The notes: generated by a model not told the origin, from the letters alone. A DNA stretch of 64,000 nt from Nitrososphaerota archaeon (GCA_041641305.1 JBEPYN010000001.1:576001-640000), one strand, 5' to 3'; counted from the first letter of the stretch, positions 1,475-4,461 are shown. Made by a program: numbers and translations.

Positions 1475-1559
1475 GCTTAAATGATTTAGAGACGGGTTTT
1501 ACACTTTCTTGGGGAAGGTCTTCGGCATTGTTTGTTCTTCTCTCTTAGGGTTTCATAAT

Positions 1560-1925
1560 TACTCACCTTTACAAGGTGACGACTACGTAACATGACGCTA
1601 CCCCGGAATCATCACTGGCATACCGAGATGAAAAAAGGAAAGAAGGAGGGGTTGTATACACCACCTTCATCTCCTACGCCTTCGCCCAAGACTTTCCCCG
1701 CGGAACGCCCGACTGTCTTCCGCCCGCATGTCATCACCCTCTGGAGTATGGGGTTGACGCCGCAGGCGCCGGCTGGTTTCTGTCACCCTTCATAGGGAAA
1801 GGTTCATTAGGAGCCCTCACCCAATATACCCTCGGCAGGGGCTGCCGGAGGGGTCTTGGGAAGGACTTCCTCCCCTTCCCCTCCAAGTGGCAGACCCTGA
1901 CACTGGGGGCCTTGGGTGAAGGCTT
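1560..1925 (-). ncRNA. Putative structured RNA overlapping and following the 3' end of the TnpB-like ORF (omegaRNA/sotRNA-like)
   Basis: Stems 1813-1824/1912-1923, 1847-1853/1878-1884, 1858-1865/1868-1875, 1574-1583/1730-1739, 1625-1632/1666-1673, and hairpin 1563-1579. Imperfect pairs are G-U only on the minus strand. Confidence 0.55.
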
Positions 1926-2580
1926 TCTCGACGGCTGTTGTAAGGTTGTCTAATGCCTGTTTGTATTCTCTGAGCTCTTTTCCGAGGTGGGTGTCGAGCA
2001 GGTGGAAACCGTGAAGTAGTAGCGCTGTTCTCGCCAGATTTTTCACCGCCACATGGTCTCTGTCATCTCGGTGTCCGCATTCTTCGCACTTCAGTCTATC
2101 CCATCTGCCTTTCTCATGCTTCATCAGTTTGTTGCATTTTGGACATAGACTGCTGGTGTAGTGGGGAGGCACTGTTACTAGCTTCCCCATCTTTTCGCAT
2201 GCTGTTGACAGTCGTCGTATAAGCTTGGCTATGGGCCAGCTGCTGATGATATGTGACTTTTCAGGGTCTTTTGCTTTTAGCCGCTGCTTTAGCTGACCGG
2301 CGTTTAGCCGCTCCAGAACCACTGCCTGTGTATTCGATGCAAGCCTCTTCACTAAACCGGCTGATTTGTTCACCCAGTCGTTGTCCAGGTTTCTAGCATA
2401 TCTCAGCCACGCATATGCTGGTCTTCCATGGATCCTTAGAGACCGCCTGTTAACCCTTCTGACAAACAATAGCTTGCCGACGTTGCGTGAGACACGTTTA
2501 TAACCCCTGAAGCGGATCAGCAGCCCAACCTCAACCTCGGCAACTATGATGTCTCTGACGTTTACGTCCACCACGACCAT
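1807..2580 (-). CDS. tnpB: TnpB/Cas12f-family RuvC plus Zn-ribbon nuclease lacking the N-terminal WED/REC half (257 aa from ATG 2580; ORF track extends to 2694)
   Basis: RuvC-I VVVDVN, RuvC-II VVLERL, YTSSLCPKC...CEECG Zn finger, RuvC-III DRDHVAVKNL. The extra 38 codons in the track are a Gly-rich read-through of an RNA hairpin. Confidence 0.8.
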   Translation of the reverse strand: MVVVDVNVRDIIVAEVEVGLLIRFRGYKRVSRNVGKLLFVRRVNRRSLRIHGRPAYAWLRYARNLDNDWVNKSAGLVKRLASNTQAVVLERLNAGQLKQRLKAKDPEKSHIISSWPIAKLIRRLSTACEKMGKLVTVPPHYTSSLCPKCNKLMKHEKGRWDRLKCEECGHRDDRDHVAVKNLARTALLLHGFHLLDTHLGKELREYKQALDNLTTAVEKAFTQGPQCQGLPLGGEGEEVLPKTPPAAPAEGILGEGS

Positions 2581-2934
2581 TTTTATGGATCCCCGCAGCG
2601 CATAGCTCCGAAGCAGATCTGGAAAATATCCTCCCGCCCCGGCCCCCAACCCCGAAGAGCCGGAGCCGCCAAAGCGTTCTCCAGATCCTCCCATAGCTCT
2701 CCCCGCTCATCCCTAGACCCGGAGGCTGAGACCCCAGGCCTTTGGGATGAGACCTGGGGGCTTGGGTCTAGGGATCATCAAGCACGCTAACTGCCGCCGA
2801 ATGTGTAACATCTGCGTAGGGTCGACAACCCTACTTTCTGCGGGCAGCCGACTACCGCCCTTTTAACGGCCAGGCGACTACCGGCCCTATAGCCCAGCTA
2901 GGCGGGGCTTTCCACTCCTTCTCCTTACCTAGCC
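2581..2934 (-). ncRNA. Putative ~350-nt structured RNA upstream of the TnpB-like ORF
   Basis: Stems 2896-2902/2928-2934, 2816-2822/2828-2834, 2710-2720/2764-2774 (perfect 11 bp, flanked by UGAUGA and AUGA), 2732-2738/2753-2759, and 2615-2626/2677-2688 enclosing a C-UUCG-G tetraloop (2653-2656). Confidence 0.65.
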
Positions 2935-2955
2935 GTTTTCAACTACATTGTCCCG

Positions 2956-2964
2956 ATATAATAA
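2956..2964 (-). promoter_or_regulatory. Archaeal TATA box for the structured RNA/tnpB transcript
   Basis: TTATTATAT on the minus strand, ~22 nt upstream of the first stem, which begins at 2934. Confidence 0.5.
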
Positions 2965-3027
2965 CTTAACTTCCCACTTTCAGATACCTCTTAACTTATT
3001 TGAGGCTACCCTACTATTCACTGTAGT

Positions 3028-4302
3028 ATGCTCCTTAGACGGGTGTCCTTAGATAAGAAGAGACTCCAGGTCAGCATCTCAGGCAAAGTTTTCAATGTGT
3101 GGGGTAGGGAGGACGAGGGTTATGTCCTGAAAGGTGGTCTAAACCTGCTTGAGCACGTGCGGGGTATTAGGCTGTCTGACCTTCCTGAGCATTTGGTGGT
3201 AGAGATTGGTCCTAGGTTATCGGAGAAGTTTGGACTACAAAGAAGATTGAATTTCTCGGCAAGTCGGAAGGCTTTCAAAGTATCCTATCTGCTAACTGCT
3301 TCACGGGAAACTCTGATAGATGTTGAAGAGTATGCGTCAGAGATTGCTCGCAAGGCTGAGGAACATGGATTCAGCTGTCAAACCAGCAAGACGGAAGAAG
3401 AGACCCACATTGAGGCTAGTTACCGGCTGGGCGGAGGAGAGGAGATAGGGTATATTGTGGAGCTTTTCGAGGATGCATTAGCGTCTGCAGAGAGGTCGAT
3501 TGAGCAGAAAGAAAAGAGTATGCGTCAAAAGCTGGAGTACTGGATAGGAAATGTGGAACGGCTTGATGGCCGCATTCTCTCAAAACTGAACGGCTTAGAA
3601 GGCGTGGCTAAATGGATTATCCATCCGCTCACCAGTAAAGAGATAGCGTTCATACTCTTCGGCATCAAGCCTGAGTCGTTTAATCTGGGAGCCAAGCTGT
3701 CTTATGCATTGCTTCAAAGATTCGGGGTCTGGGATGGAGAGACAATAGATAGGCTTAAGGCCTTAGGCATAATCGCATACATGGAAGATAATTCAAGGCT
3801 CTTCTGCACGTTCACAGGATGGCGGGTCAAAAAGCTCCTCGAACAAATGATCTTCTTGGAACCTAAAAGCTTCACCTCATCCACAGCCAGCGGCTACGAC
3901 CCAATCTCCCTCCTCCACTATATCGGGAGGAACTTCCCATCACTGGCAATATCCAAAAGCAGGAGATTCAGAGGAAACAAAGGCGGAGCATTCAGATACG
4001 CCGAAAAAATGCTGAAACAGCTAACCTTCACACATATAGCAGCCCTAGCCGGAATCTATTGGCGGCTTCCCATACCCAAGCAGGTATTAGACGAAACCCT
4101 CAGCCAGCTGGTCAGCCTAGGCTTCATAAGCCACAACAGAAAAATCAAACCCTTCGCCAAATGGATAATAAGCCTGCTAAACGGCTACATCAGAAAAACC
4201 AAACTAGCCACAAACCCAAACCAAAAACAAACCCAGACAACACTGTTCAACTGGAACTGCCTACAAGAAACATTCATAAAACGAATATCTGAAAAACGGT
4301 AA
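3028..4302 (+). CDS. Hypothetical 424-aa protein; two winged-helix-like segments and a C-terminal PIP-box-like motif
   Basis: Long intact ORF with TIDRLKALGII..LFCTFTG and TLSQLVSLGFI wHTH-like patterns, and QTTLFNW at 4234-4254. Confidence 0.7.
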   Translation: MLLRRVSLDKKRLQVSISGKVFNVWGREDEGYVLKGGLNLLEHVRGIRLSDLPEHLVVEIGPRLSEKFGLQRRLNFSASRKAFKVSYLLTASRETLIDVEEYASEIARKAEEHGFSCQTSKTEEETHIEASYRLGGGEEIGYIVELFEDALASAERSIEQKEKSMRQKLEYWIGNVERLDGRILSKLNGLEGVAKWIIHPLTSKEIAFILFGIKPESFNLGAKLSYALLQRFGVWDGETIDRLKALGIIAYMEDNSRLFCTFTGWRVKKLLEQMIFLEPKSFTSSTASGYDPISLLHYIGRNFPSLAISKSRRFRGNKGGAFRYAEKMLKQLTFTHIAALAGIYWRLPIPKQVLDETLSQLVSLGFISHNRKIKPFAKWIISLLNGYIRKTKLATNPNQKQTQTTLFNWNCLQETFIKRISEKR

Positions 4303-4337: not shown

Positions 4338-4461
4338 TCCCGCGGGGCGGATTTGAACCGCCGACCACCCGGTTTCCATGTTGCCTGGCGGGCTGATCTT
4401 CGGCTCAGCCACTTGGCTGACCGCTACAGCCGGGCGCTCTACCAGGCTGAGCTACCGCGGG
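4338..4461 (-). tRNA. tRNA-Tyr(GTA) with a 50-nt intron at position 37/38 (4374-4423)
   Basis: CCCGCGG acceptor stem with C1-G72, D arm AGCTCAGCCTGGTAGAGC, CT-GTA-G anticodon loop, T arm GGCGG-TTCAAAT-CCGCC, and a BHB-like CUGU/AUGG helix. Confidence 0.96.

Follow-up and report, generated by a model that had tools for sequence, protein, structure and literature searches.

IStrons carry, from 5′ to 3′, a group I intron ribozyme, an IS605 tnpB gene and an omegaRNA (10.1101/2023.11.20.567912; PMC4227781). TnpB omegaRNAs (also called reRNAs), including the sense-overlapping sotRNAs of IS1341-type tnpB genes, are structured RNAs tied to a RuvC nuclease gene of the TnpB family (PMC8612924; PMC4615843). 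These two architectures are the nearest to the element described here, which comes from a Nitrososphaerota archaeon (GCA_041641305.1, JBEPYN010000001.1:576001-640000; this stretch of 64,000 nt is called the window below, and positions are counted from its first letter). The analysed region covers 385 nt of the window (2581–2965, minus strand, the same strand as the nuclease gene), and the best reading of the sequence is that positions 2940–2636 represent the 5′ part of an RNA ‘frame’, conserved and not dependent on the nuclease, around a Caldarchaeales nuclease gene. The proposed transcript would run from a TATA-type promoter through a stem (P1), three tandem hairpins (H1–H3), a linker that varies, a module of hairpins specific to the subfamily, the start codon, a hairpin with the motif GGGGUUG and the nuclease open reading frame (ORF) to a pyrimidine tail and a T-run. 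In the window the ORF of this unit encodes a TnpB that consists of RuvC only, and it is accompanied by an omegaRNA-like RNA at its 3′ end.

The locus shares with IStrons the order of structured 5′ RNA, nuclease ORF and 3′ RNA, a 3′ end which must pair back with the 5′ RNA, and 5′ and 3′ folds that can compete. Group I introns also host LAGLIDADG genes. In contrast to IStrons, no group I or group II signature is found here by Rfam, the host is archaeal and the unit is intergenic, with its own TATA box and T-run; as no host gene surrounds it, exons that would have to be joined are lacking. Apart from the tie to a TnpB-family RuvC gene, the likeness to TnpB omegaRNAs consists of a companion 3′ RNA (1923–1656) overlapping the end of the ORF as an omegaRNA does (PMC8612924; PMC4615843). 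The 5′ RNA itself differs from them, as it lies upstream of the gene, has no guide-like end, occurs with LAGLIDADG genes as well and has no Rfam match, while the nuclease here is without the WED and REC domains. An omegaRNA lies 3′, has its guide as the last 16–20 nt and is associated with TnpB or Cas12 only; the 5′ RNA shows none of this. The omegaRNA of IscB and IsrB (HEARO) is, like our RNA, large, structured and located 5′ of a RuvC nuclease gene, and is thought to replace protein domains. However, the protein here is of the TnpB/Cas12 type (zinc finger, then DRDH), there is no HEARO match and no 5′ guide, for which P1, starting ~21 nt after the TATA box, leaves no room. In the hok/sok system the extreme 3′ end of the toxin mRNA is paired with a 5′ element (fbi–tac), by which this message is kept stable and silent; removal of the 3′ end triggers refolding. 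Our element would resemble hok/sok in such long-range pairing between the two mRNA ends, but hok/sok is bacterial and has an antisense RNA partner, while here the 5′ partner is a loop closed by a stem, with three further hairpins behind it.

The 5′ RNA and its complementarity to the 3′ tail

About 70 related loci were fetched, from genomes of Caldarchaeales (‘Aigarchaeota’) and from hot-spring metagenomes. A covariance model, R1, built from P1 and H1–H3 matches 34 of them, 23 of which are distinct. The features involved in the local folds and in the long-range pairing are, in the window:

2896–2934, minus strand: P1, a 7-bp stem (2934–2928 with 2902–2896) with a 25-nt purine-rich loop; compensatory changes in six of seven pairs
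2816–2886, minus strand: tandem hairpins H1 (2886–2868), H2 (2860–2842) and H3 (2834–2816), each with a 6-bp stem and a 7-nt loop
1631–1655, minus strand: pyrimidine tail ACAACCCCUCCUUCUUUCC, then a T-run; complementary to the P1 loop

In the alignment of the 23 distinct sequences, 96.1% of the cells in the stems of P1 and H1–H3 are paired, compared to 32–51% when the partners are slid, and changes on both sides are seen in 19 of the 25 pairs. Within H1–H3 taken separately, 13 of 18 pairs show compensatory changes and 94–99% of cells are paired. None of 500 shuffles reached the covariation score of the R1 alignment. The alignment contains G·U pairs on the gene strand only, and therefore the folded strand is the gene strand. 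The minimum free energy of the 385 nt is -169.8 kcal/mol, as against -152.9 +/- 5.2 in 100 dinucleotide shuffles, none of which is as low (z -3.26). The original prediction, which was made from the DNA of the window only, had proposed a structured RNA on the minus strand, with folding energy against shuffled controls as a check, and both this z-score and the 19/25 compensatory pairs bear it out. Its opening stem GGCUAGG/CCUAGCU is P1, its hairpin GUAGGGU/ACCCUAC is H3, and the repeat CGGUAGUCG that it listed (2883–2875 and 2857–2849) turns out to represent the loops of H1 and H2. Judged by covariation, this is a real, conserved structured RNA of hot-spring archaea which has not been described previously, and it adds a well-supported class to a domain where few large non-coding RNAs are known.

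The hairpin loops follow a pattern of their own. In the window they read UAGUCGC (H1), UAGUCGG (H2) and UUGUCGA (H3), and across loci the loop sequences are constant within subfamilies (for example nAGUCGn, GCUCGn or UAAUnGn) but different between them. Sites bound by a protein, and evolving together with a partner that changes fast, would be expected to show such a pattern, and we infer that H1–H3 are likely to be such sites.

The loop of P1 (2926–2912) is complementary to the pyrimidine tail (1655–1631) lying 1.26 kb downstream, with GAAGGAG facing CUCCUUC in the window. Each of 22 distinct loci has 10–19 complementary positions between its own loop and tail, with duplex energies from -19 to -33 kcal/mol, and the letters change together: other subfamilies have UAGGAGGGG with CCCCUCCUA, GGUAAAGG with CCUUUACC or UGUGAGGG with CCCUCACA, and one forms a perfect 13-bp helix, AAGAGAGUGGAGG with CCUCCACUCUCUU. 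In four independent subfamilies a U in the purine strand is met by an A in the pyrimidine strand. With seven subfamily representatives, the cognate assignment of loops to tails is the single best of the 5040 permutations. Both ends of this 1.3-kb gene unit are linked by complementary segments that covary. An automatic covariation scan on MAFFT alignments missed the loop–tail helix and most of the 5′ hairpins because of indels, and was useful for the 3′ RNA only. A bulge-helix-bulge splicing motif is not seen at the loop–tail helix, since only one of the strands has bulges and some of the helices have none. A second long-range pairing, of GGGGUUGG (2651–2644) with CAACCCC (1756–1750), was dropped because CAACCCC pairs locally in the hairpin GUCAACCCC...GGGUGAUGAC.

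The T-run after the tail is likely to be a terminator. Similarity to a 95%-identical relative (L054/L099) stops right after this T-run and the flank at 1500–1630 is completely different, which marks the edge of the conserved unit.

Known RNA families do not account for the element. With Rfam 15 at the gathering score only tRNAs were found in the window, as well as in nine homologous loci, and even at E<=10 the part of the window at 1500–3400 gave only chance matches of microRNA type, with neither HEARO nor Intron_gpI among them, in agreement with the initial remark that the family was not recognised. A known housekeeping RNA is excluded by this absence of matches together with the high-scoring RNase P RNA and SRP RNA located elsewhere in the source genome.

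Two nuclease types within one RNA frame

The gene carried by the frame in the window and the RNA that accompanies its 3′ end are:

1807–2694, minus strand: TnpB-like protein of 295 amino acids, RuvC and zinc finger (Pfam PF07282, E 1.5e-13)
1656–1923, minus strand: second conserved structured RNA, located as a TnpB omegaRNA would be; 115 nt of overlap with the ORF end and a further 150 nt past the stop

The D-E-D triad of RuvC (D43, E128 and D213) and the zinc-finger cysteines C184, C187, C203 and C206 are invariant in 11 sequences, while the rest of a typical TnpB is missing. Only positions 265–388 of the 389 in the NCBIfam guided_TnpB profile are matched (69.8 bits, with a cut-off of 100), and the alignment to ISDra2 TnpB covers residues 268–379 only. 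Foldseek matches of the nuclease model are to the RuvC parts of Cas12g, Cas12f, TnpB and Fanzor2, with which the RuvC domain and the zinc finger superpose over ~200 columns. There are no WED and REC domains: RuvC-I is preceded by ~38 residues, 24 of which are disordered in the model. The prediction gives residues 1–24 and 257–295 a local confidence (predicted local distance difference test, pLDDT) below 50, as expected for disorder, and both segments coincide with conserved RNA helices. The sequence of these N-terminal 24 and C-terminal 39 residues (2620–2694 and 1807–1920, minus strand) seems to be dictated by the RNA and not by the protein. A TnpB reduced to the RuvC and zinc-finger core is a form that we did not find in the TnpB surveys and reviews consulted, and literature searches on TnpB in Aigarchaeota, on truncated or domesticated TnpB and on TnpB with LAGLIDADG gave no description of this 5′ RNA, of the RuvC-only form or of the partner protein.

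The 3′ RNA (1923–1631) lies where an omegaRNA would, at the 3′ end of tnpB and overlapping the end of the ORF. Its nucleotide conservation is unaffected by where the stop codon of each homolog falls, and it contains a 13-bp helix (1923–1911 with 1825–1813) with six compensatory pairs and a 9-bp helix (1893–1885 with 1788–1780) with four.

In some loci the R1 match is followed not by TnpB but by a gene of the LAGLIDADG_3 family. These loci, which include two of the seven genome matches (L111 and L112), score 51–65 bits with R1, and the RNA with its LAGLIDADG_3 gene was noted at the following positions of each locus:

L111: 1501–2885
L112: 1625–225, minus strand
L127: 2137–3570
L131: 2257–3625

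Like the TnpB-type loci they have the motif TGAAAGTG and an AT-rich box, and also P1, the tandem hairpins, the start context GAGCCAUG and the GGGGUUG hairpin. The omega-like 3′ RNA is absent from them; the pyrimidine tail follows directly after the ORF and is complementary to the P1 loop of the same locus. When the TnpB-type locus L012 is compared with the LAGLIDADG-type L111, the hairpins are almost identical, while the loops differ and so, correspondingly, do the tails. In these archaea LAGLIDADG proteins form a large family of 312 clusters, and many of the called proteins include translated leader and tail sequence at their ends. Taken together, the loci show by their sequences that one RNA frame carries, and serves, either of two unrelated nuclease families.

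The distribution of the unit is narrow. The 5′ RNA with its downstream nuclease gene is present in a single copy in the source genome (1.66 Mb), and R1 finds matches in seven of the 75 species genomes of the order, always one per genome, and in none of 132 genomes sampled from other orders of the phylum. Nuclease homologs (50–76% identity) come only from Caldarchaeales genomes (Ca. Caldarchaeum, Pelearchaeum, Wolframiiraptor, Calditenuis) and hot-spring metagenomes, and a search of IMG/VR with the nuclease gave no relative. Some copies of the RuvC-only TnpB have premature stops or frameshifts (L085, L088, L105/L017), and in L111 the gene that usually adjoins the unit (see below) is split in two; from these lesions the RNA/nuclease unit appears to be decaying in some lineages.

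Putative promoter, linker and competing helices

The remaining parts of the unit are, in the order of transcription:

2975–2982, minus strand: conserved motif TGAAAGTG, in the space that separates the divergent genes, ~10–25 nt before the TATA-like box
2956–2964, minus strand: TATA-like box TTATTATAT, ending 21 nt before P1
2776–2815, minus strand: variable linker, 40–65 nt in TnpB-type loci; up to ~200 nt and A/C-rich in LAGLIDADG loci
2706–2775, minus strand: module B, an outer 12-bp stem (2775–2764 with 2720–2709) and an inner 10-bp hairpin (2759–2732)
2692–2701, minus strand: start context G(A/G)AGC(C/U)AUG, whose AUG (2694–2692) is the start codon (GGGGAGAGCUAUGG in the window)
2636–2666, minus strand: hairpin within codons 10–20, with an outer stem of 8 bp (2666–2659 with 2643–2636) and the conserved loop motif GGGGUUG

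The relatives have AT-rich boxes at the position equivalent to the TATA-like box. With 21 nt between this box and P1, the transcript probably begins a few nucleotides ahead of P1. The motif TGAAAGTG is present in all subfamilies, LAGLIDADG loci included, and is the best-conserved word of the intergenic region across them; it is a candidate binding site for a regulator and may be an operator.

The linker is rejected as a guide. It differs from that of the 95%-identical relative in four of 42 nt, which is ordinary divergence and not spacer-like, and a search of the source genome with a 385-nt query spanning the linker gave, elsewhere, only short and weak matches at the chance level.

Module B is limited in this architecture to one group of subfamilies, the others having different hairpins at the same position. 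It includes the 11-bp stem of the original prediction, now extended to 12 bp, and the alternative pairing noted there, CUCAUCCC (2751–2744) with GGGAUGAG (2713–2706), is also present and conserved. This competing helix overlaps both the outer stem and the inner hairpin. Among nine sequences the outer stem and inner hairpin are 94–96% paired, with changes that are one-sided and mostly wobble-preserving and no compensatory pair, while the competing helix reaches 98.6% pairing and has two AU<->GC compensatory pairs, probably from one event; RNAalifold favours the competing helix over the module B stem. Both folds fit the alignment, and either a switch or a partial pseudoknot would fit as well.

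It was also suggested that the 11-bp stem forms a C/D-like kink-turn in an L7Ae-bound RNA that changes conformation. Two conserved, mutually exclusive helices agree with the latter part of this proposal, and in the source genome UGAUGA (2780–2775) and AUGA (2710–2707) do flank the stem, in the way that UGAUGA-like and UGA-like words flank a helix in box C/D and other L7Ae-bound kink-turn RNAs. However, these flanks, together with the UUCG loop, are confined to the source genome and its 95% relative, and unrelated letters replace UGAUGA and AUGA in L052, L043, L044, L040 and L011, where the stem is kept. No tandem G·A pairs can be drawn beside the stem and there is no match to a C/D or kink-turn family in Rfam. 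L7Ae binding is therefore unsupported, and we regard a switching kink-turn RNA as very improbable.

Positions 2581–2694 are protein-coding and represent the first 38 codons (~115 nt) of the TnpB-like ORF, since the conserved start is the ATG at 2694. A start at the ATG at 2580 was excluded, as protein conservation (LLxRYxxKG, then VxVDVNV) extends upstream of it and most homologs have no start codon there. The ORFs of the LAGLIDADG loci are preceded by the matching start context (GAGCCAUG). A second repeat that had been listed, GAGCUAUG, is present at 2699–2692 and 2608–2601. The coding hairpin had been described as a 12-bp stem enclosing C-UUCG-G: the hairpin and the UUCG (2656–2653) are there, but the stem consists of ~11 pairs, including G·U, with one bulge instead of a clean 12 bp, and the UUCG is incidental. 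Among nine close sequences one of the eight outer pairs shows compensatory change (CG in four, GC in four), and in more distant subfamilies the hairpin is formed by other letters, which entails amino-acid changes such as S-G/A-G to S-R/R-E. In the LAGLIDADG loci the GGGGUUG hairpin sits in the untranslated leader, and therefore this motif is an RNA element and not a requirement of the peptide.

The adjoining gene and the possible roles of the frame

The unit adjoins a gene which is nearly as constant as the RNA itself:

3028–4302, plus strand: divergent gene P0002, 424 amino acids, no known family; adjoins the unit in nearly all loci

Genes of this type encode 370–450 residues. In nearly all loci whose flank is long enough, LAGLIDADG loci usually included, they lie upstream in divergent orientation; in one subfamily they lie downstream. 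The 424-aa protein has no match in Pfam, NCBIfam or PADLOC, and although its AlphaFold2 (AF2) model is confident (pLDDT 89), Foldseek against the Protein Data Bank (PDB) gave no match at E<=0.001. With VIA-align the highest score was Z 7.9, for a single domain, and residues 169–424 showed weak MarR/winged-helix-like matches (Z ~6). The family is small, with only 28 clusters among 1.84 billion representatives, and a word-index search also gave few members; its gene is present in 12 of the 75 species genomes of the order. The protein is a candidate regulator or RNA-binding partner.

The reading that we favour, at a probability of roughly 0.42, is that of a cis-acting leader, independent of the nuclease, in which the 3′ tail of the mRNA itself would close the P1 loop, while the hairpins would be bound by protein and the product of the adjoining gene would be the regulator. 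The tail would fold back on the P1 loop and close the 1.3-kb mRNA, similarly to the fold-back of fbi and tac in hok. We infer that such closure would protect both ends of the mRNA and restrain expression of a potentially harmful nuclease, and that module B could refold via the competing helix once the tail is lost or displaced. The protein binding H1–H3 might be the neighbouring winged-helix-like protein of 400 aa, which is the obvious candidate and may also bind TGAAAGTG between the two promoters. If this regulatory fold-back operates, it would represent a new archaeal way to silence selfish nucleases. Several considerations weigh against such a leader. More than 120 nt of covarying structure and a dedicated protein are a lot for a mere leader, and a TnpB lacking WED and REC seems to need a substitute made of RNA or protein, which favours a ribonucleoprotein (RNP) role. 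In addition, the mismatches in the loop–tail helices (G·U 9, A·C 5) do not separate an RNA helix from an inverted repeat at the DNA level.

What would an RNP role look like? The 5′ RNA would be cut from the transcript and join the omega-like 3′ RNA via the loop–tail helix, and this bipartite RNA would replace WED and REC in a minimal, trans-acting RNA-guided nuclease. The nuclease keeps the D-E-D triad and the zinc finger while lacking the N-terminal 185 aa of TnpB, its gene is flanked by two covarying RNAs, and the tail stands at the 3′ end of the omega-like RNA, where a guide would be, all of which speaks for such an RNP; LAGLIDADG proteins, too, can act as RNA-binding maturases. However, the 5′ RNA and the tail also serve LAGLIDADG genes, where the omega-like RNA is missing, there is no guide-like segment (the linker diverges at an ordinary rate and has chance-level genome matches only), and the tail is already taken by its own 5′ loop, so that we consider this scaffold unlikely, if worth keeping in mind. 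In a stronger form, the 5′ and 3′ RNAs joined by the loop–tail helix would be one RNA of ~550 nt, partner of a 230-residue RuvC-only TnpB core whose WED/REC functions it takes over; or else the frame would be an independent non-coding RNA gene with an orphan 400-aa protein, colonised by two homing-type nuclease families. We would sooner bet against this pair of proposals than for it, but an RNA partner of ~550 nt, if true, would make the protein the smallest RNA-dependent nuclease of the TnpB/Cas12 line, and an RNA substituting for the lost domains would bear on the minimisation and evolution of RNA-guided nucleases. The tail could alternatively be a guide against its own leader, as DNA or RNA, the RNP thus acting in autorepression like the TnpB-derived TldR repressors. 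The tail is exactly at the guide position of TnpB, its complement is 10–25 nt downstream of the likely transcription start, and guide and target would be expected to covary, as seen. Yet the pairing persists in LAGLIDADG loci without TnpB or omegaRNA, the helices are broken by bulges or mismatches after 8–10 bp in several subfamilies, and no WED domain is present to read the target-adjacent motif (TAM); moreover, with the catalytic residues intact, a DNA self-target would be cut. Self-targeting thus appears improbable.

Loop and tail might also be features of DNA, inverted repeats or single-strand hairpins marking the ends of a mobile element that moves with a homing-type nuclease. The patchy, single-copy distribution (RNA in 7/75 and partner gene in 12/75 species genomes) is compatible with this, as are the pseudogene state of some copies, the wobble counts given above and the fact that both nuclease families are typical of selfish elements. 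The genes around the unit vary from locus to locus, and tRNA genes lie within 3 kb in nine of 25 loci; five loci have one convergently and directly after the tail (L100 3639–3715, L104 3679–3754, L074 3718–3794, L076 3833–3909 and L127 3650–3722), a hint that insertion may occur next to tRNA 3′ ends. On the other hand, the purine segment is not terminal but sits inside P1, which covaries with sense-strand G·U pairs, conservation extends upstream into the promoter, TGAAAGTG and the partner gene, each genome has one copy, and the family was not found in IMG/VR; a purely DNA-level role is accordingly a long shot. In the window itself, 36 nt past the partner gene, there is an intron-containing tRNA gene with a 53-nt insert (4338–4461, minus strand).

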